Assembly (NCBI GenBank): GCA_034431435.1
Contig: DAOUDG010000084.1
Span: 78,591 to 142,590, forward strand
DNA length: 64,000 bases
Direction: 5' to 3'
Source of the DNA: Anaerolineae bacterium
Lineage (GTDB): Bacteria; Chloroflexota; Anaerolineae; Epilineales; JAHCIE01
The number at the start of each line of letters is the position of its first letter. Position 1 is the stretch's first letter. Made by a program: the position numbers and the translations under genes. The notes under the pieces were generated by a model. It saw only the letters and a list, made by a program, of their open reading frames with translations. It did no database searches and was not told the origin of the DNA. Below, piece by piece: positions 935 through 45,071 of this stretch.

Positions 935-3723
<2,789 letters not shown>

Positions 3724-3740
3724 CGGCCTGCAATGGCGCC

Positions 3741-28606: not shown

Positions 28607-29776
28607 CTATTCCATGCTCGTGGTAATGGGCAGGCCGCGCTCGCGGCGGCTACGCTCGCCCCAGATCAGGATGCGCTCGCCCAGGTCGCGGGCGGCGGTG
28701 GGTCTGGCCAGGGCCAGGCAGCGCGTCTGCATGTCGGCCAGCGTGGCGTTGCCGGGGCGCAGCCACTCGCGCAAGGTGTCGACCACGGCCTCCGACGTGA
28801 AGGCCGCTGCCCCTACCTCCTCGTTGACGACATAATCGACGTTGGCCTTCTCCTGGCCGGGCACGTAGCCTGAGAGGAGCATGGGCAAGCCCTCGATGAG
28901 CGCCTCAGCGATGGTGCCGGGGCCGGCCTTGGTGACGATCACGTCCGACGCCGCCATCCACTCCGGCATGTTCCGCACGAAGCCGGTCACGACCGTCGGC
29001 GCGGTCCAGTCGAAGGCGTCCAGCTCCTCCTTGAGGGTAGCGTTGCGGCCGGCGATGACGGCCATCTGCACATCCAGCTCGCTGGCGTCAATGGCGACCG
29101 CCGTGTCGTACACGTTGCCCATGCCCTCGCCGCCGCCGACGATGAGAATGGTGGTCGTGTCGGGGCGTAGTCCGAGGCGACGACGCAGCGCGGCGCGCTC
29201 GCCGCTGAACGGCTGGAAGCGCGGGCTGACGGGCTGCCCTACCACCTCGATGCGCCCCGGTTCCAGGCCCAGGCGTATGCCCTTGTCGCGCGCCGGCTCA
29301 GTCGGCACGTAGGTGAAGTTCACTCGACCATCGTACCACGCCGCGCTGCCGTCTACCAGGTCAGTCACCACTGTCAGGACAGGGATGGGCTGTGGCAAGG
29401 CGCGCGCCGCCACCGCCATCGGTGTCGAGGCCAGGGGATGCACCGACACCACCACATCAGGGTCGTGGGCCTGGATGAGCCGCACGAAGCGGCCCTTCAT
29501 CGTTGGCAGCAGGGCGCGCCAGAGCGGGTCGCGCACCAGGCGGTACTCGCCCAGCTTCCATGACATGTGCCATGTCCAGTCGGCCTTGTTGACCATCGGC
29601 CCATACAGCGCGCCGGTGCGGTTGAGGGGCGGCGGGAACGCTTCCACGTAGAAATCGGCCAGCGATACCTCGGCCCGGCCCGGCCAGTACAGGTCGATGG
29701 CTTCGTGGATAGCCTGCGCCGCGCTGCGGTGGCCGCCGCCAGTGTCGGAGAAAAGGAAGAGGATGCGAGTTGGCAC
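28607..29776 (-). CDS. Monogalactosyldiacylglycerol synthase-like glycosyltransferase (GT28; MGDG/diglucosyl-DAG synthase family)
   Basis: ILFLFSDTGGGHRSAAQAI N-terminal motif diagnostic of MGD1/UgtP-type GT28 enzymes, plus a C-terminal GT-B Rossmann half. Confidence 0.8.
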   Translation of the reverse strand: MPTRILFLFSDTGGGHRSAAQAIHEAIDLYWPGRAEVSLADFYVEAFPPPLNRTGALYGPMVNKADWTWHMSWKLGEYRLVRDPLWRALLPTMKGRFVRLIQAHDPDVVVSVHPLASTPMAVAARALPQPIPVLTVVTDLVDGSAAWYDGRVNFTYVPTEPARDKGIRLGLEPGRIEVVGQPVSPRFQPFSGERAALRRRLGLRPDTTTILIVGGGEGMGNVYDTAVAIDASELDVQMAVIAGRNATLKEELDAFDWTAPTVVTGFVRNMPEWMAASDVIVTKAGPGTIAEALIEGLPMLLSGYVPGQEKANVDYVVNEEVGAAAFTSEAVVDTLREWLRPGNATLADMQTRCLALARPTAARDLGERILIWGERSRRERGLPITTSME

Positions 29777-32656: not shown

Positions 32657-33964
32657 ATGACTCACTCCACCCCCGCCGAGCATGACTCGGCCCTGCATGT
32701 CCTGATGGTCGCCCCGACGAGCTTCTTTGCCGACTACGGCTGCCATGTTCGCATCCTGGAAGAGGCTCGCGTCCTCCAGGCCCTCGGCCATCGGGTGACC
32801 ATCGTGACCTATGCCCAGGGCCGCGACGTAGCCGACGTGACCCTGCGCCGCACTGCGCCGCTGCCCTGGCACGCCGACTACGAGGTCGGCTCCTCGCGGC
32901 ACAAGTTCGCCTTCGACGCCTACCTCGCGCCCCTTGTCCTCCGCGTCGCCCGCTCATTGCGCCCCCACGTGGTTCACGGCCACCTGCACGAGGGCGCGCT
33001 GCTCGGCTGGCCCGCCGCGCGAATGCTGGGCGTACCCCTCATCTTCGACTACCAGGGGTCCATGACCGGCGAGATGCTCGACCACGGCTTCATCCAGCCC
33101 ACTGGCGCGGCGTATCGGCTGGCGCGCTGGGGCGAGGATCGTATCAACCGCCTGGCCGACGCCGTCATCACCAGCTCGACGCGCGCCGCCGATCAGTACA
33201 TGGCCGCGACGCCCGGGCGCGGGGCGCGGGCCGTGCCCGATGTGGTCAATCCCCACGTCTTCCACCCAGCAACCCTCACAGCCGACGAGCGGCGAGCACA
33301 GCGGGCGACGCTCGGCATCCCGCCAGACGCGGAGGTCGTCGTATACCTGGGTCTGCTTGCCCCGTACCAGGGCACCGACCACCTGCTACGCGCGGCAGCG
33401 CGGGTGTGCGCCACCCGGCCCGCCGCCCACTTCCTCGTCATGGGCTACCCGAATGTGGAACGCTACCGCGACCTGGCCGACCGTCTGGGCCTGGCGGGCC
33501 GCGTCACTTTCACAGGGCGCGTGCCCTACGAGGATGCGCCGCGCCGCCTCGCGCTGGGTGACGTGGCCGTGGCCCCCAAGCTGTCGAGTACCGAGGGCGC
33601 GGGCAAGCTGCTCAACTACATGGCGATGGGTCTGCCGACGGTCGCCTTCGACACCGAGGTGAGCCGTGAATATATGGGCGCTGCCGGGCTGTACGCCGTC
33701 CCCGGCGATGACGATGACCTGGCTGACCGCGTTGCCGCCATCCTGAGCGACCCCGACCGCGCTGTCGTGGGCCGTCGCCTCCGTGCCCACGTCACGCGCG
33801 CCTTCCCGTGGCAGGGGATGGGACAGGCCCTGCTGGATGTCTACGAGGAGGCGCGCGCGCGCCCCACGGGTTACCGCCCCGCGCCTGCGCCCGCTGCGGA
33901 GCTGCGCCCCGCGCGAGAGGAGCCGTCTTCCCCCGCCGTTTCGGCGGCCGGGAAGCGAGGATAG
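32657..33964 (+). CDS. GT4 family (group 1) glycosyltransferase
   Basis: GT-B N-terminus (VLMVAPTSFFADYGCHVR) and C-terminal EX7E-like region (GLPTVAFDTEVSREY). Confidence 0.85.
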   Translation: MTHSTPAEHDSALHVLMVAPTSFFADYGCHVRILEEARVLQALGHRVTIVTYAQGRDVADVTLRRTAPLPWHADYEVGSSRHKFAFDAYLAPLVLRVARSLRPHVVHGHLHEGALLGWPAARMLGVPLIFDYQGSMTGEMLDHGFIQPTGAAYRLARWGEDRINRLADAVITSSTRAADQYMAATPGRGARAVPDVVNPHVFHPATLTADERRAQRATLGIPPDAEVVVYLGLLAPYQGTDHLLRAAARVCATRPAAHFLVMGYPNVERYRDLADRLGLAGRVTFTGRVPYEDAPRRLALGDVAVAPKLSSTEGAGKLLNYMAMGLPTVAFDTEVSREYMGAAGLYAVPGDDDDLADRVAAILSDPDRAVVGRRLRAHVTRAFPWQGMGQALLDVYEEARARPTGYRPAPAPAAELRPAREEPSSPAVSAAGKRG

Positions 33965-33967
33965 AGC

Positions 33968-34807
33968 ATGACGGTCATGGTCAACCGCCGCCAGCAACGC
34001 CTGTCGGCGCGGCTGGCGGAGCTATGGCGCTATCGCGACCTGGTACGCAACCTGGCGTTGCGCGACCTCAAGGCGCGCTACAAAAGCTCGGTGCTGGGCT
34101 TTGTCTGGTCGCTGCTGAACCCGCTGCTGATGACGGTGGTCTTCACCATCGTCTTCACGGTCATGCTGCCTAGCAACATCGAGAAGTACCCGGTATTCAT
34201 CCTGGTGGGTCTGCTGCCGTGGAACTGGTTCTCTAGCTCCCTGTTCGGCTCTGTCCAGAGCATTGTCGGCAATGCCAATCTCGTGAAGAAGGTCTACTTC
34301 CCGCGCGAGGCGTTACCCACCGCCGTGGTCGTCGCCAATGGCGTCAATTTCCTGCTGGCGGGGATTGTCCTGTTCGCCCTGATTCTGATCTATCGTATTC
34401 CCATCACCGCCTGGGTGTTCTTCTTACCCGTCCTGGTTGTCATCCAGTTCGTGCTTACGCTGGGCCTCGGCCTGTTCGTGGCCGCCCTCAACGTGCGCTT
34501 TCGCGACACGGCTGTTATTCTGGAAGTCGTTCTCCAGGCCTGGTTCTTCCTCACCCCGGTTGTCTACGATATGCGGGTGCTGCCCGAGGCCAAGAACATC
34601 ATGGGTATGGACGTGGAAATACGCCGCTGGGCCTATATCCTCAATCCCATTGGGTCGCTCATCGCCAGCTACCGCGACATCCTATACTGGACGACACCAC
34701 CCGGCCTCGATTTCGTTGCCCGCACCGCCGTCGAATCGGCTATCATTCTGGTCGTCGGCTACCTGTTCTTCAACCGGCTGGCCCCCACCTTTGGCGAGGA
34801 TGTCTGA
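33968..34807 (+). CDS. wzm: ABC-2 type polysaccharide/O-antigen export permease (Wzm/KpsM/TagG-like)
   Basis: 279 aa, 6 TM, ABC-2 signature region (YKSSVLGFVWSLLNPLLMTVVF). Confidence 0.9.
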   Translation: MTVMVNRRQQRLSARLAELWRYRDLVRNLALRDLKARYKSSVLGFVWSLLNPLLMTVVFTIVFTVMLPSNIEKYPVFILVGLLPWNWFSSSLFGSVQSIVGNANLVKKVYFPREALPTAVVVANGVNFLLAGIVLFALILIYRIPITAWVFFLPVLVVIQFVLTLGLGLFVAALNVRFRDTAVILEVVLQAWFFLTPVVYDMRVLPEAKNIMGMDVEIRRWAYILNPIGSLIASYRDILYWTTPPGLDFVARTAVESAIILVVGYLFFNRLAPTFGEDV

Positions 34808-36177
34808 TGGCGGACCAGGCGACGCAGAACGGCGCGCTGGAACGGGAGGTCGCGGTCGAGTTCGACCATGTCTCCAAGCGGTTCACCCTGTACCACGACC
34901 GGCCGCGCTCGTTCCAGGAGTGGATGGTCGGCATGTTCCGCCGCGCCGAGCGCCACGAGGAGATGTGGGCGCTGCGCGATGTGAGCTTCCGTATCGGGCG
35001 CGGCGAGGTGGTGGCCTTCATCGGCTCCAACGGCGCGGGCAAGAGCAGCCTGTTGAAGCTGGTCAGCGGCATTCTCGCCCCGACCGAAGGCGCGGTTCGC
35101 GTCAACGGGCGCATCTCTGGCTTGTTGGAGTTGGGCGCGGGCTTTCACCCCGACCTGACGGGGCGTGAGAACGTGTACCTGAACGGCTCCATTCTCGGCC
35201 TCGACCGCCGCGAGGTGGATCGCCTCTTCCCGGCCATCGTTCGCTTCGCCGAGATGGAAGCCTTCATCGACATGCCTGTCAAGCACTACTCGTCGGGCAT
35301 GTACATGCGGCTGGGGTTCGCCGTCGCTATCCACTCCAAGCCGGATATCCTGCTGGTGGACGAGGTGCTGGCGGTAGGCGATGCCGCCTTCCAGGCCAAG
35401 TGTCTCAATCGCATCCTCGACCTCAAGAAGCGCGGCGCGACCATCCTGTTCGTCAGCCACGATCTAGACTCGGTCCGTAAGTTGTGTAACCGCGCCATAT
35501 GGATCGACCGCAGCCGGGTGCGCGCCGAAGGCCCGCCCGCGCAGGTCATCGCCGCCTACCTGGACAAGGTGGCCGCGCAGCAACTTGCTGACCGCGCCGA
35601 GGAGGACGCCGCCGAGGCGGTTGCGGCCGCGCCTGCTGCGGACAACCGGGCGGCGGACACGGTCACCCCCAATCCCCCGTCCCCAACCCCAAGCCCCTCC
35701 TCCGGCGCGCGCTGGGGGACGCGCCAGGTAGAGATCACCGCGGTCGAGTGCCTGGGCGCAGACGGCCAGCCGTCCGATGCCTTCGACACCGACGCGCCGT
35801 TCTGCGTGCGGATTCACTACGACGCCCATCAGCCCATCGAGCATCCCATGTTCGGCATCGCCATCCACCACGAGGAAGGCGCGCACGTGTCGGGGCCGAA
35901 CACCGTCTACGCGGGCTTCGACATCCCGCGCATCCACGGCGTTGGCTACGTCGACTACGCGGTGGACGCCTTGCCCCTGCTGGCGGGCCAGTACACACTG
36001 ACGGCGGCCATCTACGACCACTGGGAGACGGGCGCGTACGATCACCACGACCAGATGTACCGCTTCCGTGTCCGACCCGGCCATGCGGAGCGCTATGGCC
36101 TTGTCACCCTCAACGGGCGCTGGAGCGCGACCGTGGCCGAGGTGTCGACGCTATCCCTGGCCGAGGATGCGCCATGA
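34807..36177 (+). CDS. wzt: Polysaccharide/O-antigen ABC transporter ATP-binding protein with C-terminal glycan-binding domain (Wzt-like)
   Basis: Walker A GSNGAGKSSL, LSGGQ-like YSSGMYMRL, Walker B ILLVDE. About 160-aa beta-rich C-terminal extension (RQVEITAVECLGADGQ...YRFRVRP) like the O-PS terminal-residue-binding domain of E. coli O9a Wzt. Confidence 0.9.
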   Translation: MADQATQNGALEREVAVEFDHVSKRFTLYHDRPRSFQEWMVGMFRRAERHEEMWALRDVSFRIGRGEVVAFIGSNGAGKSSLLKLVSGILAPTEGAVRVNGRISGLLELGAGFHPDLTGRENVYLNGSILGLDRREVDRLFPAIVRFAEMEAFIDMPVKHYSSGMYMRLGFAVAIHSKPDILLVDEVLAVGDAAFQAKCLNRILDLKKRGATILFVSHDLDSVRKLCNRAIWIDRSRVRAEGPPAQVIAAYLDKVAAQQLADRAEEDAAEAVAAAPAADNRAADTVTPNPPSPTPSPSSGARWGTRQVEITAVECLGADGQPSDAFDTDAPFCVRIHYDAHQPIEHPMFGIAIHHEEGAHVSGPNTVYAGFDIPRIHGVGYVDYAVDALPLLAGQYTLTAAIYDHWETGAYDHHDQMYRFRVRPGHAERYGLVTLNGRWSATVAEVSTLSLAEDAP

Positions 36178-36767
36178 GCAGTCGCCCGACCGACGTGATC
36201 GAGATTCGGGACACAGCCGTCGATGTCGAGGCCTTGATGACGCTGATTCGCGACCGCGCCGCCCAACGGCGCGCCGGAGTCGATACCTCCCTGGACCTCG
36301 ACGCCACGACGCGCTCGGTGTTCGCGGCAGCGGGGGTCGCGCCAGCCGCCGACATCGACACCCGCCAGGCAATCCCGCTGCCCGCGACCCCGCCCCCCGG
36401 CCAGGAGACCCTGCCTGCCCTGCGGGACCTCAATGCCCAGTGGATGATTCGCGAGCAGCCCTTCACATCCAACGCCCCCCTGATTGGGCCGCTCATCGTC
36501 AGGGTGCGGGATGCCTGGAATTGGATGTCGACCAAGTGGTACGTGCGGCCCCTGCTCCAACAAATCACAGCCTTCAACCTGTCTGTCGTCCGCGCCTTCC
36601 GCGATGTCGAGGCGGAGCAGGGTCGCGTTGCCGACCGCATCCGCGATCTGGAAGCCCTGACGCGGCAACAGGCCGCCGAGATTGAGGCTCTACGCCACGA
36701 CGTGCAGCGCCTGCGCGCCGAGGGCCGCGCCGACGCGGGGCCAGAGGACCCCTACGCGCGCTCATGA
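36174..36767 (+). CDS. Hypothetical protein with conserved 'WNWMSTKWYVRPLLQQ' motif + C-terminal coiled coil (copy 1 of 3)
   Basis: ATGA overlap with the wzt stop. 197 aa. Motif EQPFTSNAPLIGPLIVRVRDAWNWMSTKWYVRPLLQQITAFN, then a heptad-like region (RIRDLEALTRQQAAEIEALRHDVQRLRAEG). Confidence 0.6.
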   Translation: MSSRPTDVIEIRDTAVDVEALMTLIRDRAAQRRAGVDTSLDLDATTRSVFAAAGVAPAADIDTRQAIPLPATPPPGQETLPALRDLNAQWMIREQPFTSNAPLIGPLIVRVRDAWNWMSTKWYVRPLLQQITAFNLSVVRAFRDVEAEQGRVADRIRDLEALTRQQAAEIEALRHDVQRLRAEGRADAGPEDPYARS

Positions 36768-37852
36768 CGACGGTGCATCAGCTGGCATCGTCGTTTGCGT
36801 ATGGGGACGCCATCACGAACCACATCCTCGCCCTGGATGCCGCGCTCCGCGACTGGGGCTACACGAGCCGCATCTATGCCGAGCGGGTAGAGTCGCGGTT
36901 GCACTCGCTGGCCCAGCCTGACTCGGCCTACCTGCCCGCCATCGAGCGACCCGACGACATCCTCATCTATCACTACTCGGCCTACTCGCCCAACACGCAA
37001 CTCTACCAGCGGTCCCGCAACCGGCGATTGTTGGTCTATCACAACATCACCCCGGCCGAGTACCTCGCCGCCTACGATGCCGACCTGGCGGCGGTCTGCC
37101 GCCTGGGGCGCGACGCATTGCCGCAACTGTGCGACGCCGACCTCGCCGTGGGAGTCTCCGACACCAACCGCCGCGAGCTACTGGCCGCCGGCTTCGACCC
37201 CCGGCGCGTCGCCGTCCTGCCCATCATTCTCAACCTGGCGACCTGGGACGCTACGCCGCCCAATGCGCGCCTCGCCGAGCGGCTATCGGACGGGCGGGTC
37301 AATATTCTCTTTGTGGGTCGTGTCGTGCCCAACAAGGCCTTCGAGGATGTGATCGCGATTTTCGCCGCCTATCGCCGCGCCATCCAGCCCCACGCGCGGC
37401 TGTCCCTGGTGGGAGCGCGCCTCCTGCCACGCTACAGCGCGGTCCTCGACCGGCTGGTAGAACGGCTAGGGCTGAGCGACGCCGTGACCTTCACTGACCG
37501 CGTCTCCCTCGCCGACCTGAGAGCCTACTACGACACGGCCCACGTCTTTCTGTCGGCGAGCCGCCACGAGGGCTTTTGCGTGCCCCTCCTGGAGAGCATG
37601 TACTTCGGTGTGCCCATCCTGGCCTACGCGGCGGCCGCCGTGCCCGAGACCCTGGGCGCGTCGGGGGTCGTGTATCACGCCTTCGACTACCCCGTGCTGG
37701 CCGAGACACTGCATCTCCTGGCGACCGACGGCCCGACGCGGGCCAGGCTCATCGCCGGGCAGCGGGCGCGGCTGGCCGACTTCGCCCCGCCGCTCGTCGC
37801 AGGCCAATGGCGTGTCGCGCTTGAGCAGGTGGCCGCCCCTGGCGCGCACTAG
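36764..37852 (+). CDS. GT4 family glycosyltransferase
   Basis: ATGA overlap with the previous stop. GT-B fold blocks (NILFVGRVVPNKAFEDVI; EGFCVPLLESMYFGVPILAYAAAAVPETLG). Confidence 0.85.
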   Translation: MTTVHQLASSFAYGDAITNHILALDAALRDWGYTSRIYAERVESRLHSLAQPDSAYLPAIERPDDILIYHYSAYSPNTQLYQRSRNRRLLVYHNITPAEYLAAYDADLAAVCRLGRDALPQLCDADLAVGVSDTNRRELLAAGFDPRRVAVLPIILNLATWDATPPNARLAERLSDGRVNILFVGRVVPNKAFEDVIAIFAAYRRAIQPHARLSLVGARLLPRYSAVLDRLVERLGLSDAVTFTDRVSLADLRAYYDTAHVFLSASRHEGFCVPLLESMYFGVPILAYAAAAVPETLGASGVVYHAFDYPVLAETLHLLATDGPTRARLIAGQRARLADFAPPLVAGQWRVALEQVAAPGAH

Positions 37853-37899
37853 CCATGCTTTTGCTTGGCGAACGGCGAACCTCGCGGTACAATACTCGC

Positions 37900-39078
37900 A
37901 TGCGTGTCTCCATCGTCGTACAGCGATACGGGCCGGACGTCCTGGGGGGAGCCGAGCGCCACGCGCGCCAGGTAGCCGAGCGGCTGGCCGAGCATTATGA
38001 GGTCCAGGCGTTGACGACCTGCGCCCACGACTACGCCACGTGGGCCAACGCCTATCCGCCGGGCGAGAGTGTGATCAACGGGGTGCGGGTGCTGCGCTTC
38101 CCGACCCTCCAGCCCCGCGCCACCAATCTGCCCCAGCTTTGGGACCGCGTTCACCTGCGCGTTCACACGTTGGCCGATGAGATGACGTGGCTGCGCGCCC
38201 AGGGTCCCTACGCGCCGGGGCTGCTGGATTACCTGCGTCAGCAGCGCGACGAGAGCGACGTCTTCATCTTCTTTACCTACCTGTACTACCCGACGGCGAT
38301 GGGCCTGCGCCTCGTCGCCGACAAGTCCATCCTCGTCCCCACCGCCCACGACGAGGACCCCATCTACCTCAACCTCTTCCGCGACGTGTTCCATTCACCG
38401 CGCGCCATCCTCTACAACACCGAGGAGGAGCGGCGCTTCGTCGAGCGCCACTTCGACAACGGCTATGTGCCCAACGCGGTGGTCGGTGTGGGCATCGACC
38501 TGCCGGACGCGCCGCAGCCCGAACGCTTCCGCGCCCGCTTCGGCCTGGACAGGCCCTATTTCCTGTACCTGGGGCGCATCGTGCCCGACAAAGGCTGCGC
38601 TGAGATGCTCGACTATTTCGACGCCTACCGTCGCGCCTTCCCCGACGAGGCGATTCTGACCCTGGTCGGCGCCGGCGAGATGCCGCTACCCAGCGCGCCC
38701 TGGCTGGTCCCGACCGGCTTCATCCACGACGAAGACAAGGTGGACGCCATCGCCGGCGCCGAGGCGGTCATCGTGCCCTCGCGCTACGAGAGCATGTCGC
38801 TAACCACCCTGGAAGCATGGAGCCTGGGGCGGCCTGTCGTCTGCACCGCCCACTCGCCGGTGGTGCGTGGGCTGGTGCGTCGCGCCGGGGGCGGCCTGTA
38901 CTACGGCGACAGCGACGAGTTCGTCGAGGCGTTGCACCTGTTAGTGTCGGACCGGGACACGGCAGATGGGTTGGGCCGCCAGGGCCGTAGCTTCACTCGC
39001 GCCACCTATCGCTGGCCGGAGGTAATCGCCACCTATCAGCAGTTCATTGAGGACATCGCCGCCCAGCCCTGGCGCTGA
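37900..39078 (+). CDS. GT4 family glycosyltransferase
   Basis: N-terminus MRVSIVVQRYGPDVLGGAERHARQ parallels MRILHIIQRYWPAVGGAERHLHE of the 42051 gene. C-terminal E..E GT4 block (YESMSLTTLEAWSLGRPVV). ORF-track start 37855 rejected in favour of the ATG at 37900. Confidence 0.85.
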   Translation: MRVSIVVQRYGPDVLGGAERHARQVAERLAEHYEVQALTTCAHDYATWANAYPPGESVINGVRVLRFPTLQPRATNLPQLWDRVHLRVHTLADEMTWLRAQGPYAPGLLDYLRQQRDESDVFIFFTYLYYPTAMGLRLVADKSILVPTAHDEDPIYLNLFRDVFHSPRAILYNTEEERRFVERHFDNGYVPNAVVGVGIDLPDAPQPERFRARFGLDRPYFLYLGRIVPDKGCAEMLDYFDAYRRAFPDEAILTLVGAGEMPLPSAPWLVPTGFIHDEDKVDAIAGAEAVIVPSRYESMSLTTLEAWSLGRPVVCTAHSPVVRGLVRRAGGGLYYGDSDEFVEALHLLVSDRDTADGLGRQGRSFTRATYRWPEVIATYQQFIEDIAAQPWR

Positions 39079-39094
39079 CGCGACGCACCCACCG

Positions 39095-40615
39095 ATGGCT
39101 GAGCCTACCGTCGCCGTTGGCCTCCTGACCTACAATGGCCGTGCCTTCGTCGAGGCCTGTCTGGCGTCCGTGCTGGCGCAGAGTCCCTCTGCTGACGAGT
39201 TCCTGGTAGTCGACAACGCCTCCACTGACGCAACCCCTGATGTGATCGCCGCTCGCTATCCCCAGGTTCCCCTTGTCCGGAACGACACCAACGTCGGTGT
39301 GGCGCTGGGCCTCAACCAGTTGGTGGCCGCGACGACGGCCCCCGTCGTCGTTCTCCTGAACCAGGATGTCGAACTGCGACTCGGCGCCCTGGCCGCCATC
39401 AGCGACGCCTTCGCCGACCCCCAGGTGGGTGTCGTCGGCATCAAGCTGCTCTACCCGGACGGGCGGACGATGCAACATGCCGGTGGCTGGCTAGAGTGGC
39501 CCCTATACCTGGCTCAACATTACGGCTACGGCCAGCCGGACGATGGTCGCTGGGATACGCCGGCCGAAGTCGATGTGGTCACGGGAGCTGTCTTCGCCGT
39601 CCGCCGCGTGGCATGGGATGCCCTGGGCGGCATGTCCGACCTGTTCTCACCGGCCTACTTCGAGGAGACCGACTTCTGCCTGCGGGCGCGGGGAGCAGGC
39701 TGGAAGGTTGTCTATGCCCCGGCCGCCATCGCGCTGCACCACGAGTCCACTACCCTGGGGCGGGGCAGCCGTCGCTACCTGGACCTCTATCACAACCATC
39801 GGTTGCGCCTGGCGCTCCGCCACGGTTCCATCGACCACCTGCTGACCTATTTCGCCCGCGCCGAGGCGCGCCGCACGGCCCACCTGCGGCAGCTGCCCGA
39901 GGCCGCCGACGAGGTGGCCGCGCTGACGGCTGCCTACGCCGACGCGCGTCGCCAGTGGCCGATCCTGGCGGCCACGCGCGGCGATGCGCCCCTGTCGCCC
40001 GGCGCCATGTGGGCCATCGATGAGATGCTGACCGCGCTGCACGGCCTGGCCGAGACCTGTGGCGACGCCGACGGCTGGAAGCGGCTGGTGTTGCCGTCAA
40101 CGGCTCTGCTGCGCACGCGGGATGCCATCCTCGCCAGTGATCCGACGCACGCGCGGGGGGAACTGCGGCCCAACGCGGCCGCGACGCAGGCGGCGCTGGC
40201 GGCGTTGGCTGCCGCTCAGACCGTCCACGAGCAGCCCTTCCGGTCGGATGCCCCGCTGGTGGGGCCGCAGATTGCCCGGATGCGGGACAGCTGGAACTCG
40301 GTGTCAACCAAGTGGTACGTCCGCCCGCTACTAGAGCAACAGAATCGCTTCAACGCGGCCGTCACCGCCGCGCTTCGCGCGCTGACCGAGGAGGTCGAGG
40401 GCCGCGACGGCCTGGAAATCAGCCTCTCGGCCGCGCTGCGCGAGATGCTGGCAGTCATGGAGGAGATGCGCACGGCCCAGGAGGCGCTGCGCTTCGACCT
40501 CGACGCGCTTCACGCGCGCGAGGATGCCCGCTACGCCGAACTGTCGGCGCGCCTCGATGCCCTTGCCGGGCAGCCACCGACCACCGACGACGACTCGGTC
40601 ATCCCGAATCCCTAG
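39095..40615 (+). CDS. GT2 family glycosyltransferase fused to C-terminal conserved-motif + coiled-coil module (copy 2 of 3)
   Basis: GT-A N-terminus (VAVGLLTYNGRAFVEACLASVLAQ...VVDNASTD...DVELR). C-terminal region repeats EQPFRSDAPLVGPQIARMRDSWNSVSTKWYVRPLLEQQNRFN, followed by a coiled coil. Confidence 0.8.
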   Translation: MAEPTVAVGLLTYNGRAFVEACLASVLAQSPSADEFLVVDNASTDATPDVIAARYPQVPLVRNDTNVGVALGLNQLVAATTAPVVVLLNQDVELRLGALAAISDAFADPQVGVVGIKLLYPDGRTMQHAGGWLEWPLYLAQHYGYGQPDDGRWDTPAEVDVVTGAVFAVRRVAWDALGGMSDLFSPAYFEETDFCLRARGAGWKVVYAPAAIALHHESTTLGRGSRRYLDLYHNHRLRLALRHGSIDHLLTYFARAEARRTAHLRQLPEAADEVAALTAAYADARRQWPILAATRGDAPLSPGAMWAIDEMLTALHGLAETCGDADGWKRLVLPSTALLRTRDAILASDPTHARGELRPNAAATQAALAALAAAQTVHEQPFRSDAPLVGPQIARMRDSWNSVSTKWYVRPLLEQQNRFNAAVTAALRALTEEVEGRDGLEISLSAALREMLAVMEEMRTAQEALRFDLDALHAREDARYAELSARLDALAGQPPTTDDDSVIPNP

Positions 40616-40632
40616 TCTCCAATCGCTCATCA
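40590..40632. repeat. Intergenic copy of the CCGAATC...CTCCAATC repeat family
   Basis: tcatcccgaatccctagtctccaatcgctcatc between the GT2 fusion and the next GT4 gene. Related to the 23538-23612 repeat. Confidence 0.4.
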
Positions 40633-40639
40633 CCTGCCC

Positions 40640-42007
40640 ATGTCCGACCCTTCCTTTCGCCATCGCCTACGCCGCCTGCGCGCCGCCTGGCGCGACACCA
40701 CACCCGCCGCGGAGACCGATGCGCGGGCTACCCAGGCCGACTTGCGCGCAGCCGAGCACGCGCTCCTCGCCGTCCAACGCCAGATCGCCACGCTGACGGC
40801 GCGTGTCGCGGCCCTCGAGGACGGCATCAACGCCCTGCGGCGGACCCACGTGCGGCCGCGCGTGGCGTTCTTCAGCCCCCTCACGCCCCAGGCCAGCGGC
40901 ATCGCTGCCTACAGCGAGGCGCTGCTGCCCGCCCTGGCCGCCCTGGCCGACGTGGACGTCTACGTAAGTGACGTGACGCCCACGTCGCCCGCGCTGACGT
41001 CCCTGCCCGTCTTCGACTATCGCGCCTATCCCGCCCGCCGCCGGGCGCAGGCCTACGACGCGACCTTCTACCAGATGGGCAACGACGTTCGCTATCATCG
41101 CTTTATCTACGCTACCCTGGCCCGCTACCCAGGGGTGGTGGTTCTGCACGAGTTCCTGCTGCACCACTTTATGGCGGGCTATACCCTGGACCACGGGCAG
41201 CGCGTCGACTATCCGTGGGAGGTGGGCTACGCCGCTGGGCAGGACGCTCTGGCCGTCGCTCGCGCCGCTGAACGGGGCGAGCGCGAGCTGCCCTTCTTCG
41301 ACTATCCCCTGGTGGAGCACGTATTGGACCTGAGCCAGGGGGCGTTGTGCCACAGCCACTACGTCCGCGATTCCGTCGCCGCCACCCGCCCTGATCTGCC
41401 CGTCGCGGTCGTGGCTCACCCGACAACCGTCACCGCGGCCGCGCGCCCGCTGGTCGCCGACCATCCCTTCACGGTCATCACCGCTGGCTACCTCACGCCG
41501 GCCAAGGGCCTGCTGCCTGCCCTGGAGGGCTTCGCCGAGTTCGCCCGCGCCGTGCCTGGGGCGCGCTACGTGCTGGTGGGGGCAGTCGAGCCGGAGTTCG
41601 ACCTGGCGGCCTGGATTCGCGACAGTGGCGTCGCCGACCGCGTCGAGCTACGCGGCTACGCGCCGACCCTGGAGGGCTTCGACGCTCAGGTGGCCGAGGC
41701 GGACGTCTGTCTCAACCTGCGCTACCCGACCGGCGGCGAGACATCCGGTAGCCTGCTGCGGGTGCTGGGGGTGGGGGTGCCGGCCGTCGTTACCGATAGC
41801 GGCTGGTTCAGCGAGGTTCCCGATACCGTCGTCGTCAAGATAGCCGCGCCGCCGACGCGGGACGCCGTCGCGGGCGCGCTGCGCGCTCTGGCGAATCCTG
41901 ACCGCCGCGCCGCCATGTCGACCGCCGCCCGGCAGTGGGTGGCGGAGGCTCACAACCCGGCTCGCACCGCCCAGGGCTACCTGGACTTCGTCGCCGCCCT
42001 CACGTAA
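40640..42007 (+). CDS. GT4 family glycosyltransferase with N-terminal coiled-coil segment
   Basis: N-terminal about 60 aa heptad-like (ADLRAAEHALLAVQRQIATLTARVAALEDGINALRR), then a GT-B fold (VAFFSPLTPQASGIAAYSEALL...). Confidence 0.8.
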   Translation: MSDPSFRHRLRRLRAAWRDTTPAAETDARATQADLRAAEHALLAVQRQIATLTARVAALEDGINALRRTHVRPRVAFFSPLTPQASGIAAYSEALLPALAALADVDVYVSDVTPTSPALTSLPVFDYRAYPARRRAQAYDATFYQMGNDVRYHRFIYATLARYPGVVVLHEFLLHHFMAGYTLDHGQRVDYPWEVGYAAGQDALAVARAAERGERELPFFDYPLVEHVLDLSQGALCHSHYVRDSVAATRPDLPVAVVAHPTTVTAAARPLVADHPFTVITAGYLTPAKGLLPALEGFAEFARAVPGARYVLVGAVEPEFDLAAWIRDSGVADRVELRGYAPTLEGFDAQVAEADVCLNLRYPTGGETSGSLLRVLGVGVPAVVTDSGWFSEVPDTVVVKIAAPPTRDAVAGALRALANPDRRAAMSTAARQWVAEAHNPARTAQGYLDFVAALT

Positions 42008-42050
42008 CCTGGCGCGCGGCCCCTTAGCGCGCCGCAGCGGCTGCCACATC

Positions 42051-43355
42051 ATGCGTATCCTGCACATCATCCAGCGTTACTGGCCCGCCGTGGGCGGAGC
42101 CGAGCGCCATCTGCACGAAATCAATCGGCGGCTCGTCGCCGACGGCCACTCCGTCACCGTCTTCACCACCGACGCCGACGACTTCGCGGCCTTCTGGGAT
42201 CCGCGCAAGCCGCGCCTCGCCACCCGCCGCGACCTTCACGACGGCGTGGTTATTCGCCGCTTCCCCCTGCGTCACCTGCCGGCCGCCCCGTTCACCTACC
42301 CCGCCGTCCGCCGCCTCATGGCGACCCTGTCCGACCTGCCTCTGGACACGACCTCGGCCCTGACCGCCATCGGCCGCTTCACACCCTGGGCGCCCGAACT
42401 GGCCGCCGAGCTGGCTGTCGCCGCGCCGGCCTGGGACGTGGCGGGCGGCATGACCGTCACCTACGACAGCCTGTTGTGGCCCGCGGCGCGCTGGGCGGCG
42501 CGCTGGCGCCGCCCCTGGCTCTTCTATCCGCTGACCCATCTCGGCGAGGGGCCAGGCTCGACCATGCGCCGCTACTACACGATGCGCCACCAACTGGAAC
42601 TGAGCCGCCGCGCCGCGACGGTCTTCGCCCAGACCGAGACGGAGAGCCGCTTCCTGGCCGGCCAGGGCGTCGACCCCGACCGCCTCGTCGTCGCCGGGGT
42701 GGGCATCAACCCGGCCGAGTATGTCGGCGGCGACGCCGCGCGGGGCCGCGCCCGGCTGGGACTCGCGCCGGGGACGCCCCTGGCGCTATCCCTCGGCACG
42801 GCCAGCCGCGACAAAGGCAGCCTCACGACCCTGGCCGCGCTGCGGCGGCTGTGGGCGGCGGGCCACCCGGCCCACTGGGTCGTGGCGGGCGCGGCGCAGG
42901 ACGATTTCACCCGCGCCCTCGACCGCCTGCCGCCCGTCTACCGTAGTCGAGTTCACGTCCTGGGCCGGGTGGACGAGGCGGCGAAGCAGGACTGGTTGGC
43001 CGCCGCCGATGTCCTGGCCATGCCCTCGCGCGCCGACTCCTTTGGCATTGCCTACCTGGAGGCCTGGGCCTACGGCCGACCGGTCATCGGCGCGCGCGTC
43101 GGCGGCATCCAGGATGTGATTCAGGCTGGCGACGATGGCCTGCTGGTCGCCTTCGGCGATAGCGGCGCTCTGGCGGTGGCTCTGGCGACGCTGCTCGACG
43201 ACCCGGCCAGGGCGCGGACGATGGGGGCGCGGGGGCGGGCGAAGGTGATGGCTCGCTACACCTGGGACGCCGTGTATGCTCGCGTGCGCCCGGCCTACGC
43301 GGCAGCGGGCCGAGATTGGCCCCCCGCGAGCGGCGGGACTACAATACGCGCATGA
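42051..43355 (+). CDS. GT4 family glycosyltransferase
   Basis: MRILHIIQRYWPAVGGAERHLHEINRRLVADGHSVTVFT...; C-terminus ADSFGIAYLEAWAYGRPVIGARVGGIQDVI. Confidence 0.85.
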   Translation: MRILHIIQRYWPAVGGAERHLHEINRRLVADGHSVTVFTTDADDFAAFWDPRKPRLATRRDLHDGVVIRRFPLRHLPAAPFTYPAVRRLMATLSDLPLDTTSALTAIGRFTPWAPELAAELAVAAPAWDVAGGMTVTYDSLLWPAARWAARWRRPWLFYPLTHLGEGPGSTMRRYYTMRHQLELSRRAATVFAQTETESRFLAGQGVDPDRLVVAGVGINPAEYVGGDAARGRARLGLAPGTPLALSLGTASRDKGSLTTLAALRRLWAAGHPAHWVVAGAAQDDFTRALDRLPPVYRSRVHVLGRVDEAAKQDWLAAADVLAMPSRADSFGIAYLEAWAYGRPVIGARVGGIQDVIQAGDDGLLVAFGDSGALAVALATLLDDPARARTMGARGRAKVMARYTWDAVYARVRPAYAAAGRDWPPASGGTTIRA

Positions 43356-43831
43356 GTGAACGACGTGTGAACGGCGCGGCCGATGCGCGGCCTGCGTCGA
43401 CCGAGCGCCAGGCGCGGGCCGAAGCGGCGCTCCGCGACGCCCTCGCCGCCCGCCGCCGGGCCGTTGCGCCGCCCGGTTGGGACGACGCCGCCTTGAATCG
43501 CGGCGCGGTACGCATGGAAGCCGCAGCCAACGTCAACCCGCATCAGCCGATTGCCTGGCCCACCTGGCCGCCGGGTCTCGTCCCCAAACTGACGGCGGCG
43601 GCGCAGAAGACGCTGCGGCGCGGCCTGCGCTGGTACATCGACCCTATCGTCGCCCAACAGAACGACTTCAACCGCGCCAGCGCCGACACGGCCCAGGAGA
43701 TGCGCGAGTTGCTGCGCGCCCTGGCCGTGGAGAATGCGCGCCTGACGCGGCGGCTCGCCGAGGTCGAGGCGCGCCTGGCCGACCTGGAGAGCGAGGTCGC
43801 GCCACCTGTCCCCCCCCCAACCCCGCTATGA
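43352..43831 (+). CDS. Hypothetical protein with degenerate copy of the conserved motif + coiled coil (copy 3 of 3)
   Basis: ATGA overlap with the preceding stop. PGLVPKLTAAAQKTLRRGLRWYIDPIVAQQNDFN, then a coiled coil (MRELLRALAVENARLTRRLAEVEARLADLESE). Confidence 0.5.
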   Translation: MSERRVNGAADARPASTERQARAEAALRDALAARRRAVAPPGWDDAALNRGAVRMEAAANVNPHQPIAWPTWPPGLVPKLTAAAQKTLRRGLRWYIDPIVAQQNDFNRASADTAQEMRELLRALAVENARLTRRLAEVEARLADLESEVAPPVPPPTPL

Positions 43832-44880
43832 AACACATTATCGTCTGCAACGCCCAGGTTCCGTTCCATCAAGGCGGGGCCGAAATTCATGCCGACGGCC
43901 TGGTGCACGCCCTGCGCGCGCACGGCCACGCTGTGGAGCAGGTCAACCTGCCCTTTGCCGACTACCCACGCGCCGAGATCCTCAAGGGCGCGCTGGCCTG
44001 GCGACTGTTGAGCCTCGAAACCATCATGGGTAGCTCCGACAGGGTAGACGCGGTCATCTGCCTCAAGTACCCGTCCTACGTCGCCCAGCATCCCCACAAG
44101 ATCGTGTGGCTCATCCATCAGTACCGCGCCGCCTACGACCTGCTAGGCACAGCGTACAGCGACCTGCGTGACAGCGCCGAGGATCGCCGCGTCATCCGCA
44201 TGCTGCGCCGGATGGACAACAAAGCCCTCGGCGAGGCGAAGGCGCTGTACACCAACGCGCGCAACACAGCCCAGCGGCTGGCGCGCTACAACGGCCTGCA
44301 CGCCGCGCCCCTGTACCACCCGCCTCAGTACGTGGGCCGCTACCGCTGCGACAGCTACGGTGACTTCATTTTCACCGTATCGCGTCAAGATCCACTCAAG
44401 CGCGTCGATCTGCTCATCCGCGCCGCCGCCCTCACGCCGGCCCACATTCGGGTCGCCATTGCCGGGCGCGGCCCGCTGCTGGAAGAGCACATGGCCCTGG
44501 CGCGGGACCTCGGCATCGCCGACCGCGTCGACTTCCTCGGCTTCGTGGACGAGGAGCAGTTGCTGGACCTCTACGCCCGCTGCGCCGGCGTCTACTACGC
44601 GCCCTACGACGAGGACTACGGCTACGTCACCCTGGAAGCCTTTATGTCCGCCAAGCCCGTGCTGACGGCCACCGACTCGGGCGGGCCGCTGGAATTCGTC
44701 ACCGACGGCGAGTCCGGCGTCGTCTTCGCGCCGGACGATGTGGCCGCCCTGGCGCGCGGCATGCAGCGCCTGATAGACGACCGCCGCGCGGCCCAGCGCA
44801 TGGGCGAGGCGGGCTTCGAGCGCGTCAAGGGCATCACCTGGGACCACGTGGTCGAGACGCTAACGCGGGGCATCCCATGA
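43828..44880 (+). CDS. GT4 family glycosyltransferase
   Basis: ATGA overlap. MKHIIVCNAQVPFHQGGAEIHADGL...; C-terminal GT4 E-x7-E block (DEDYGYVTLEAFMSAKPVLTATDSGGPLEFV). Confidence 0.85.
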   Translation: MKHIIVCNAQVPFHQGGAEIHADGLVHALRAHGHAVEQVNLPFADYPRAEILKGALAWRLLSLETIMGSSDRVDAVICLKYPSYVAQHPHKIVWLIHQYRAAYDLLGTAYSDLRDSAEDRRVIRMLRRMDNKALGEAKALYTNARNTAQRLARYNGLHAAPLYHPPQYVGRYRCDSYGDFIFTVSRQDPLKRVDLLIRAAALTPAHIRVAIAGRGPLLEEHMALARDLGIADRVDFLGFVDEEQLLDLYARCAGVYYAPYDEDYGYVTLEAFMSAKPVLTATDSGGPLEFVTDGESGVVFAPDDVAALARGMQRLIDDRRAAQRMGEAGFERVKGITWDHVVETLTRGIP

Positions 44881-45071
44881 ACGACCCGCTCATTGACGCC
44901 CTGGCCGACCTGCTGGCCGCCCTCGACTTCAGCGAGGACGACGAGCCGGTCATCAGCGCCCTGGCCGCCGCCCTGGTCGATCTCGACCTGGACGCAGACG
45001 AGCCACGCGGTACGCCCGACATCGCCGCGACCGAAGGCGATTCTGCGCTGCCCCGCCCAGCGCAAGACTGA
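44877..45071 (+). CDS. Small acidic hypothetical protein (64 aa), translationally coupled to the last GT4 gene
   Basis: ATGA overlap with the upstream stop. MNDPLIDALADLLAALDFSEDDEPVISALAAALVDLDLDADEP... No known domain. Confidence 0.35.
   Translation: MNDPLIDALADLLAALDFSEDDEPVISALAAALVDLDLDADEPRGTPDIAATEGDSALPRPAQD

Follow-up and report, generated by a model that had tools for sequence, protein, structure and literature searches.

Three copies of a non-catalytic coiled-coil module in a Chloroflexota glycan-assembly cluster: a possible enzyme scaffold

Three proteins encoded in one glycan-assembly gene cluster carry the same small module, whose highly conserved head of about 45 aa is preceded by a short N-terminal helix and runs on into a heptad helix of variable length. 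Profile comparisons identify the stand-alone protein A, a C-terminal cassette of protein B and the stand-alone protein C as paralogues of this one unannotated, non-catalytic module. Homology, architecture, fusions and gene linkage were established computationally. Coiled-coil rulers of O-antigen synthesis are already known; a conserved head and stalk free of any enzyme had not been annotated. We consider the chances about even that the module is a portable coiled-coil scaffold or adaptor for glycan-assembly enzymes and, by analogy with known systems, possibly a ruler.

The gene cluster and the anatomy of the module

The cluster was analysed within the window, that is, the whole stretch of 64,000 nucleotides. 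On re-checking, the gene positions were the same as in the initial annotation, all on the + strand:

32657-33964, + strand: GT4, first gene of the operon
33968-34807, + strand: wzm (ABC2_membrane match 3e-13)
34807-36177, + strand: wzt with C-terminal Wzt_C carbohydrate-binding domain (Wzt_C match 6e-27)
36174-36767, + strand: protein A, stand-alone module, 197 aa
36764-37852, + strand: GT4, '36764 type'
37900-39078, + strand: GT4, '37855 type' (start 37900 from public gene calls; alternative ATG at 37855)
39095-40615, + strand: protein B, GT2 plus module, 506 aa
40640-42007, + strand: GT4, '40640 type', with N-terminal coiled-coil extension
42051-43355, + strand: GT4, '42051 type'
43352-43831, + strand: protein C, diverged stand-alone module, 159 aa
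43828-44880, + strand: GT4, '43828 type'

The Wzm/Wzt pair (33968-36177) is the exporter of this cluster. The start of the protein A gene overlaps the wzt stop and its own stop overlaps the start of the GT4 at 36764; the protein C gene similarly overlaps the stop of the upstream GT4 (42051-43355) and the start of the downstream GT4 (43828). The GT4 at 36764-37852 is translationally coupled to A, and the GT4 at 43828-44880 to C. Neither a methyltransferase nor a kinase is present in the window, and a search of its complete six-frame translation with the core HMM found no further copy of the module (next match E > 1).

The three proteins had been described as having in common a block of about 45 aa followed by a coiled coil, with the copy in 43352-43831 the more diverged, and both statements hold. 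A and B match by BLASTP at E 1e-22 (45% identity over 98 aa), and an A-family profile of 28 proteins, B and C not among them, matches B at E 1.5e-23. BLASTP found nothing significant between C and A, and between C and B only the 17-aa core WY..P...QQ..FN (E 2e-4). Homology of C is supported by profile methods. The A-family profile matches the C sequence with a probability of 96.5% (E 7e-10), and direct comparison of the A-family and C-family profiles, the check originally named for the relationship, is significant (98.2%, E 4.7e-14) over 133 columns, from the N-terminal helix through the block into the coiled coil.

In protein A, an N-terminal helix motif (VIEIRD..VDVEALM..IRDR..QRR) precedes the block (aa 92-135, nt 36447-36578; EQPFTSNAPLIGPLIVRVRDAWNWMSTKWYVRPLLQQITAFN) and a coiled coil (aa 136-183, nt 36579-36722). 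The block of protein C (aa 62-107, nt 43535-43672; NPHQPIAWPTWPPGLVPKLTAAAQKTLRRGLRWYIDPIVAQQNDFN) is likewise followed by a coiled coil (aa 108-148, nt 43673-43795). Protein B begins with a GT-A (GT2) catalytic domain (aa 1-225) and a helical domain (aa 226-350); its block lies at aa 377-420 (nt 40223-40354), and a single long helix or coiled coil then runs to aa 491 (nt 40355-40567). The copy in B had been assigned to the C-terminal 150 aa, and the module is indeed there, but the shared cassette is larger and takes in the helical domain at aa 226-350. Residues 233-436 of B are 47% identical to the N-terminus of a related protein (L020), where this cassette recurs fused to a GT4. In all three copies the long helix opens with the superfamily core W-Y-x2-P-x3-Q-Q-x2-[FY]-N, whose positions are invariant or nearly so in the A-type and C-type alignments. 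Over the 28 A-family proteins 10 residues are invariant, and the invariant residues hold across deep Chloroflexota lineages.

The head of about 45 aa comprises an extended segment and then the first part of the long helix. AF2 monomer models show one helix at aa 106-187 in A and an uninterrupted helix at aa 390-491 in B (stalk pLDDT 50-75), so that in both a helix of about 80-100 residues begins inside the block. Read directly from the alignment, the invariant residues V109, R112, N116, T120, Y123, Q130 and F134 form one 3.5-residue stripe, which is continuous with the downstream heptads. The prediction of an extended coiled coil in A and B combines these single helices, seen in monomer models, with heptads readable in the sequence. 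The stalks of A and C are short, at about 42-48 aa or 6-7 nm.

A fourth coiled-coil segment had been noted at the N-terminus of the GT4 at 40640. Its heptads were borne out, but it is not a full module. The extension of about 75 aa has a conserved RLRRLRAAW motif and about five heptads, clean on direct reading at aa ~30-68 (nt 40727-40843); the block is absent according to both hhalign (probability 1%) and the core HMM. This GT4 starts 24 nt after B and in frame with it, a coincidental position because orthologues are out of frame. In a few relatives (L020, L029, L064, P0153) the 40640-type GT4 carries a fused full module at its N-terminus, exactly where the GT4 of the window carries its heptad extension. 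The same type is also the commonest gene downstream of stand-alone modules in relatives. Upstream of this GT4 the module occurs stand-alone, fused to it, or fused to the upstream GT2 as in the window.

A Chloroflexota family linked to glycan enzymes

The family comprises 2,367 clusters at 50% identity (E <= 1e-3), and every source-named member, as well as all 63 genome loci, belongs to the Chloroflexota. Neither A nor C has a match in Pfam-A 2025 at E <= 0.01 or in NCBIfam 20.0 at E <= 1, and searches of PDB chain sequences, with the single sequence of A and with a profile, returned generic coiled coils only and no glycan-assembly protein. The description of the module as uncharacterised is therefore upheld against Pfam, NCBIfam and the PDB. 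The Pfam and NCBIfam searches found no catalytic domain in A or C and only the GT2 in B, in agreement with the original statement that the module lacks kinase and methyltransferase domains.

Most family members examined (173 of 227) are stand-alone proteins of <=210 aa. When 48 longer members were compared with Pfam, a GT2 was found in 11, a class I methyltransferase in 8, a GT4 in 2 and a sulfotransferase in 1-2; tandem-module proteins without any enzyme domain also exist. The module precedes the methyltransferase in the methyltransferase fusions, with about 80-115 aa between them on direct reading of the sequences, and is placed after the enzyme in the sulfotransferase fusions. The best PDB match of the fused methyltransferases is 3DLI. 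A and C align to the N-terminal ~140 aa of these coiled-coil methyltransferases at 1e-23 and 9e-27, respectively. Two small homologues have been named 'O-antigen chain-terminating methyltransferase' by JGI.

Linkage was counted in 64 non-redundant related loci with 118 module ORFs. Of these ORFs, 43 encode GT fusions and 63 encode stand-alone modules directly upstream of a GT gene, together 106; adjacency to GT genes is partly expected in any GT-rich operon. Each of the three copies in the window is likewise either part of a glycan-assembly enzyme or encoded directly before the gene of one. The module is thus tied to glycan loci, as first proposed, and was not found broadly outside polysaccharide loci. 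Pairing is type-specific: long A-type modules go with the 36764-type GT4, short A-type modules with the 40640 type and C-type modules with the 43828 type. For example, the 36764-type GT4 has 19 stand-alone modules upstream in relatives. The 37855 type has its own upstream module in some relatives (L041, L043, L044, L057), and in one locus (L030) a 42051-type GT4 bears an A-type module at its C-terminus. The loci have 1-5 modules each, and in many a single module stands beside a single GT4 (L003, L014, L023, L036, L049-L051). Since some loci have one module only, hetero-oligomers cannot be obligatory.

Proposed role and alternative readings

As a scaffold, the module would oligomerise through its stalk, and each copy would carry or recruit one enzyme, namely the GT fused to it or encoded immediately downstream. 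Several GTs, and elsewhere capping methyl- or sulfotransferases, could then form one membrane-associated complex that works on a single lipid-linked glycan. The choice of partner enzyme would depend on the variable parts of the module, and the near-invariant head would have a ligand that occurs in every system: other heads, in setting the register of a bundle, the membrane, or a shared membrane protein. Both oligomerisation and GT recruitment, the latter suggested by gene linkage and fusions, are steps that we infer, as are a ruler function and the identity of a terminator.

A long stalk that bears an enzyme at its far end might also keep capping apart from polymerisation, following the ruler logic of WbdD and WbbB. 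Far-end layouts occur as module, ~80-115 aa, methyltransferase, or as module, stalk, GT4. In characterised systems, the carbohydrate-binding domain of Wzt recognises the chain-terminating cap. Because the window has a Wzt with a cap-reading domain and no methyltransferase or kinase, the cap would be a sugar from a coiled-coil-bearing GT, with the GT2 at 39095 or the GT4 at 40640 as candidate terminator. However, the sulfotransferase and GT2 fusions put the enzyme beside the head, so that not all members can share one 'terminator at the tip' geometry, and stalks of 6-7 nm make A and C weak candidates for a ruler.

The best-surviving alternative, possible though on the whole doubtful, is that the module is a plain self-association tag that di- or trimerises its own GT, or a subunit dedicated to assisting or stabilising the downstream GT, with neither scaffold nor ruler. 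The many loci with one module next to one GT4 are consistent with this, as are the short stalks of the stand-alone forms and the overlap of module and partner genes, which suggests translational coupling and a 1:1 pair. However, conservation of the head is far above the need of a generic coiled coil; the same head accompanies unrelated enzymes (GT2, several GT4 types, methyltransferases, sulfotransferases), and a given module may be joined to the enzyme encoded before it or to the one encoded after it. Up to five paralogues per locus and enzyme-free tandem-module proteins also argue against a simple tag and for the scaffold.

A far-reaching form of the scaffold proposal, which we think unlikely, is a Chloroflexota plug-in docking system. 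The near-invariant heads would form a register-locked bundle, the variable parts would set the height of each enzyme, and the count (1-5 modules) and stalk length would programme the enzymes and the glycan length. If true, this would be a molecular ruler built from several modular subunits instead of one protein, and would resemble the docking domains of polyketide synthases.

It is decidedly unlikely that the module serves as a membrane tether, its Trp/Arg/Lys-rich head lying in the membrane interface and bringing soluble GTs to the lipid-linked acceptor, as Alg14 does for Alg13 or as the C-terminal helix of WbdD does. Trp, Tyr and basic residues are abundant in the head, whose net charge is +3 to +5; the hydrophobic moment of the head helix is 0.51 in C (0.5-0.58 for the C-type), and the Wimley-White interfacial energy of the A-family consensus is favourable at -2.5 kcal/mol. 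WbdD has a membrane-associated amphipathic helix beside its coiled coil (PMC11231755). The moments of A (0.18) and B (0.26) are low, however, which makes membrane binding by the non-amphipathic A-type helix doubtful, and B has an unfavourable interfacial energy of +1.8 kcal/mol. The module has no transmembrane segment, and its invariant stripe includes polar residues that on direct reading better fit a protein core than a lipid face.

About as improbable is docking to the exporter, as the initial annotation had suggested, in which the head would bind Wzt (its nucleotide- or carbohydrate-binding domain) or Wzm and tether GTs to the ABC transporter. The A gene begins inside the wzt stop codon, and by their coordinates about 13 relatives seem to have a module gene directly after wzt (for example L005, L006, L009, L010, L016, L033, L066 and L067). 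However, the module does not constantly co-occur with wzm/wzt: only 28 of 65 related loci have a Wzt with a carbohydrate-binding domain within 10 kb. Among the 28 fully flanked loci, only 13 have a Wzt-like gene over that distance; the other 15 have no weaker Wzt or Wzm match there, and 12 of these carry a polytopic membrane protein of ~720 aa instead. In one genome a single contig carries the gene set of the window split between a Wzt-containing locus (L025) and a Wzt-less one (L043), so that lack of Wzt within 10 kb does not prove a genome without it. Nevertheless, since Wzm/Wzt are near only about half of the loci and modules follow GT types rather than wzt, exporter docking is unsupported as a general rule.

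Decay of terminator methyltransferases or other enzymes into remnants without catalytic domain or function of their own, which the alignment of A and C to the N-terminal ~140 aa of coiled-coil methyltransferases and the JGI name might suggest, is hardly credible and largely refuted, because intact reading frames and kept synteny with specific GTs indicate purifying selection, residues are invariant across deep Chloroflexota lineages, and 173 of 227 members stand alone at <=210 aa.

Comparison with characterised systems

Coiled-coil proteins have been called 'a characteristic marker' of ABC-transporter-dependent, terminator-controlled glycan assembly, in which separately encoded enzymes form multiprotein complexes and enzyme modules are flexibly split between fused and separate proteins (PMC11231755). 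The module is analogous, not homologous, to WbdD and WbbB. WbdD (Escherichia coli O9a/O8, Klebsiella pneumoniae O3/O5) is a chain terminator with a coiled-coil molecular ruler. The two have in common a Wzm/Wzt pathway with a carbohydrate-binding domain on Wzt (Wzt_C 6e-27 in the window) and an extended coiled coil, predicted in the module. In relatives of the module a methyltransferase lies beyond the ~80-115 aa segment, a layout that by analogy echoes the terminator-on-a-stalk logic of WbdD. Those methyltransferases, however, are of another family (best PDB match 3DLI), and A, B and C have no kinase or methyltransferase in the coiled-coil polypeptide. Searches of all PDB chain sequences, with A alone and with a profile, found no sequence similarity to WbdD. 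WbdD associates with the membrane and recruits its polymerase GT, which is encoded separately, through a region at one end of its coil (PMC11231755). Polarity is reversed, the head of the module being N-terminal to the coil and the recruitment region of WbdD C-terminal, and there are several module paralogues per locus rather than one protein.

The AF2 model of B (GT-A plus helical domain) gave Foldseek matches to GalNAc-transferases and to GlfT2, the mycobacterial galactan polymerase, a GT2 with a C-terminal helical domain. The match to GlfT2 (E 6e-12, TM-score 0.47) is limited to a generic GT-A with helical extension, GalNAc-transferases scoring equally, and both the head and the coiled coil are absent from GlfT2.

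In WbbB (K. pneumoniae O12) and ORF6 (K. pneumoniae O7), a single polypeptide contains the terminator, the coiled coil and the polymerase GTs. GT and coil also share one chain in B (GT2-module-coil) and in L020 and P0153 (module-coil-GT4), but neither a Kdo transferase (GT99 or GT137) nor a methyltransferase-kinase is present. No chain in the window has catalytic domains at both ends of a coil; B has its GT2 at one end, and the GT4 at 40640 is a separate gene. A conserved head motif is not reported for WbbB or O7 ORF6 in PMC11231755.

In K. pneumoniae O4, every activity is on a separate polypeptide, and ORF7 is a stand-alone terminator with a C-terminal coiled coil. Unlike A and C, which have no catalytic domain, ORF7 retains a catalytic GT137 domain. 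The likeness to the O4 system lies in polymerising and terminating activities on separate proteins that need to be assembled into a complex, and in a coiled coil that marks the system.

Module copies in the window

A single plus-strand operon spans 32657-44880 in the window and encodes the three proteins referred to here as A, B and C. The genes of A and C overlap the stop and start codons of their neighbours.

Genes of the operon, in window coordinates
32657-33964, plus strand: GT4
33968-34807, plus strand: wzm
34807-36177, plus strand: wzt, encoding a Wzt_C carbohydrate-binding domain
36174-36767, plus strand: protein A, 197 aa
36764-37852, plus strand: GT4
about 37900-39078, plus strand: GT4
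39095-40615, plus strand: GT2, protein B, 506 aa, module at the C-terminus
40640-42007, plus strand: GT4
42051-43355, plus strand: GT4
43352-43831, plus strand: protein C, 159 aa
43828-44880, plus strand: GT4

The window has a G+C content of about 68%, and the closest relative is an Anaerolineae MAG protein at 85% identity; both assign the window to the class Anaerolineae of Chloroflexota. Annotation was examined between 26000 and 45100, public gene calls being available for about 26174-46767. In that interval these calls, combined with Pfam, include no initiating phosphoglycosyltransferase, no ligase, no methyltransferase and no gene for nucleotide-sugar synthesis. Upstream of the operon, an MGDG-synthase-like GT28 lies on the minus strand (about 28607-29776). 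At the other end, a 64-aa ORF without a Pfam match (44877-45071), a gene call on public contigs, overlaps the stop codon of the last GT4.

The initial annotation had A, B and C sharing a block of about 45 residues (the head) followed by a heptad coiled coil (the stalk); the module as described here also has an N-terminal helix. For A and the C-terminus of B the similarity was borne out by BLASTP (E 1e-22; 98 aa aligned at 45% identity). A profile built from 28 members of the A family, from which B and C were excluded, matched B with an E of 1.5e-23 and C with an E of 7e-10 (probability 96.5%). By BLASTP, C showed no similarity to A and had only a 17-aa core in common with B (E 2e-4). Comparison of the profiles of the families around A and around C (A-type and C-type) agreed with the description of C as a diverged copy: the match had a probability of 98.2% and an E of 4.7e-14 over 133 columns, and covered N-terminal helix, block and coiled coil. 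A core HMM run on the six-frame translation of the whole 64 kb found the copies in A, B and C and no others. Judged from these sequence comparisons, the repeated module is real.

The GT4 at 40640 had been described as carrying a fourth coiled-coil segment, fused N-terminally. This region is a coiled coil, as described, but not a module copy, a possibility ruled out by an hhalign probability of 1% and the absence of a core-HMM match. It has a conserved RLRRLRAAW motif and five clean heptads (L5-A8-L12-V15-I19-L22-V26-L29-I33-L36 of TQADLRAAEHALLAVQRQIATLTARVAALEDGINALRR), which were read by eye, a crude heptad-periodicity score having given no information. At 40613-40642, the stop codon of B and the ATG of this GT4 share a frame, with 24 nt between them. 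Stop-codon read-through or a split gene was nevertheless rejected, as the frames differ in the related loci L038 (an 85%-identical orthologue), L021, L025, L041 and L057; the shared frame is therefore coincidental.

Family size, fusions and taxonomic range

The block had no match in Pfam, NCBIfam or the PDB, and PDB sequence searches and Foldseek returned only generic coiled coils or generic GT-A/GT-B folds. When 1.84 billion representatives were searched exhaustively with a profile, 2,367 clusters matched at E <= 1e-3, and 872 at the stricter E <= 1e-10; their taxonomy was read from the best-scoring members only. Among 227 members examined, 173 were stand-alone proteins no longer than 210 aa, two or three tandem modules were present in 19, and 35 were longer fusions. 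The tandem proteins (P0128, P0130, P0212 and 16 others) are 240-450 aa long; the three named, when inspected, had C-like tandem modules, 'VSAHWPL...RRLLRWYINPIVEQQNEFN', and no recognisable enzyme domain, and would be natural test cases for module-module packing.

Pfam analysis of 48 longer members identified GT2 domains in 11, a class I methyltransferase in 8, GT4 in 2 and a sulfotransferase in 1-2. Methyltransferases follow the module after about 80-115 aa, with heads of both A-type and C-type, and the N-termini of these fusions align with A at 1e-23 and with C at 9e-27. In P0153 the order is module, coil, GT4 of the type found at 40640; in other fusions the GT4 or the sulfotransferase precedes the module. 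The module-fused methyltransferases are not WbdD-like, their closest PDB match being 3DLI. Two A homologues of 190-197 aa, P0013 and P0020, are named 'O-antigen chain-terminating methyltransferase' by JGI; their sequences and alignment show stand-alone modules too short for a methyltransferase domain. Since A and C align to module-methyltransferase fusions, the name was probably transferred from these.

All members with a named source are from Chloroflexota (Anaerolineae, Ardenticatenaceae, Promineifilaceae, Thermoflexales and Thermomicrobiales). A genome scan with a strict A-type motif found 63 loci, all 63 in Chloroflexota, a result that covers the A-type alone because of the query used. A module-only alignment as homologue query returned only proteins of <=130 aa, which added further Chloroflexota names and nothing on fusions. 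When 72,556 plasmids were searched by tblastn with a C-type module, only chance matches (E >= 3) were obtained. On a plasmid of Deltaproteobacteria bacterium Smac51 (CP026659), a gene beside manC, gmd and GT genes encodes a 401-aa protein (L068, 9785-10990) that combines '...APFIIFVGKVLRRVMGYFLVPVFGDQNKFN' with a coiled coil and a class I methyltransferase. Its similarly placed '...RRVMGYFLVPVFGDQNKFN' and coil gave a weak core-HMM match (8 bits, E 0.02), suggestive of a possible remote relationship to the module beyond Chloroflexota. Similar motifs may occur in cyanobacterial and proteobacterial methyltransferases.

Glycosyltransferase partners and the proposed adaptor

In 64 non-redundant related loci, raw counts gave 118 module ORFs, of which 43 were fused to a GT and 63 were stand-alone and directly upstream of a GT gene, together about 90% as a raw rate; 11 were neither, and one lay at a contig edge. 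The pairing is type-specific. With GT4 types named after the gene starts in the window, long A-type modules (IEIRDP N-terminus) lie upstream of the 36764 type and C-type modules upstream of the 43828 type, in both cases including the window, while short A-type modules precede the 40640 type and another subtype the 37855 type.

Upstream of the 40640-type GT4 the module takes three forms: a separate gene, a segment joined to the GT4 N-terminus (L020, L029, L064 and P0153), or, in the window and 11 further loci, the C-terminal part of the GT2 that precedes it. These arrangements form a Rosetta-stone pattern. In L020, from an Anaerolineales MAG, the place of the GT2 catalytic domain is taken by the gene of a class I methyltransferase (2540-3601), and helical domain, module and coil are joined to the next GT4 in a 650-aa protein (3598-5550). 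The N-terminal helical domain and head of this protein, which lead into the coil and then the GT4, are 47% identical to aa 233-436 of B.

The data fit a reading of the module as a portable, non-catalytic coiled-coil adaptor that would tie glycan-assembly enzymes together. Partner specificity would come from its variable parts, and the head, being near-invariant, would attach to a target that all copies have in common, for instance another head, the membrane or some shared membrane protein. In WbdD, WbbB and the K. pneumoniae O4/O7 systems, coiled coils are the mark of ABC-transporter-dependent assembly under terminator control, and enzymes encoded by separate genes come together in complexes (PMC11231755). 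The proposed adaptor agrees with the principle of coiled-coil-linked enzyme assembly in these systems but has no homology to them, and it differs in being often enzyme-free, present in multiple copies, provided with a conserved head and not obligatorily associated with an exporter at the locus level. The Wzt of the window has a cap-reading domain and the operon lacks a methyltransferase or kinase, so the cap would probably be a sugar, and the coil-bearing GT2 at 39095 or GT4 at 40640 would be candidate terminators.

To our knowledge, a coil built into the terminator enzyme, as in WbdD and WbbB, is the only understood organiser of polymerases, terminators and chain length in ABC-transporter-dependent synthesis. 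For WbdD, insertion or deletion of heptads was shown to shift the modal chain length proportionally. The cell-surface glycans of Chloroflexota, an environmentally dominant phylum, are essentially unstudied. If the adaptor reading is true, the coiled coil can also be a separate, enzyme-free, multi-copy element with a conserved docking head, shuffled among GT2s, GT4s, methyltransferases and sulfotransferases and abundant in Chloroflexota. The new domain model provides a signature for finding glycan-assembly loci and pairing the enzymes inside them; the module is a small, tractable target for the study of multi-GT complex building, potentially useful for glycan length engineering.

Head anatomy, exporter context and alternative readings

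In the A-family alignment, E94, F97, S99, V109, R112, W115, N116, T120, W122 and Y123 are invariant, and L86, P102, G105, V124, Q130 and N135 nearly so; across A- and C-types jointly, only W-Y-x2-P-x3-Q-Q-x2-[FY]-N stays conserved. AF2 monomer models predict an extended E-x-P-F-x-S-x2-P-x2-G-P stretch followed by an unbroken helix, at 106-187 in A, where stalk pLDDT is high, and at 390-491 in B (about 100 residues), where it is 50-75. In the model of B, residues 1-220 also form a confident GT-A domain and residues 226-350 a helical one, a combination that by Foldseek resembles GalNAc-transferases and the galactan polymerase GlfT2.

By our reading, the invariant residues V109, R112, N116, T120, Y123, Q130 and F134 line up along a single 3.5-residue stripe, in continuity with the heptads further downstream. 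Rather than forming a domain of its own, the head thus resembles a stretch of coiled coil whose core is polar and aromatic. A plain self-association tag is a reading that we consider possible but rather unlikely. A fixed heterotrimer of the three modules was rejected as a general rule, since loci hold 1-5 modules. That the module is a membrane tether is unlikely. The hydrophobic moment of the head is low in A (0.18) and B (0.26) and moderate in C (0.51), so that a classical membrane-surface helix is not established.

Docking to the exporter, as proposed in the initial annotation, would have the module accompany wzm/wzt. The window conforms to this, but co-occurrence is not constant: a Wzt with a carbohydrate-binding domain was found in 28 of 65 related loci. 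Of the 28 loci that are fully flanked, 13 had such a Wzt, and the other 15 had no weaker Wzt or Wzm matches. L001 (Ardenticatenaceae) arranges its three modules as the window does and has no wzm/wzt within 10 kb. On one contig of one genome, however, the gene set of the window is split between a Wzt locus (L025) and a Wzt-less one (L043), so that a Wzt missing within 10 kb may still be present in the genome. An exporter docking element is a distinctly doubtful reading. That the modules are decayed remnants is highly improbable in a family with invariant head residues.

Of the 15 Wzt-less fully flanked loci, 12 instead encode a conserved, roughly 720-aa membrane protein that contains at least 11 hydrophobic segments and matches nothing in Pfam or the PDB; the copies in L001 (11704-13881) and L003 (7747-9900) are 51% identical. 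It is absent from the window and occurs in 34 related loci, several Wzt-positive ones among them. At a guess, this protein could act as an extracytoplasmic glycan transferase. In Ardenticatenaceae, the last genes of the three-module locus encode a Gal-3-O-sulfotransferase-like protein and a class I methyltransferase (L001 18698-20369; L002 9277-10194), which suggests that its glycan is sulfated and/or methylated.
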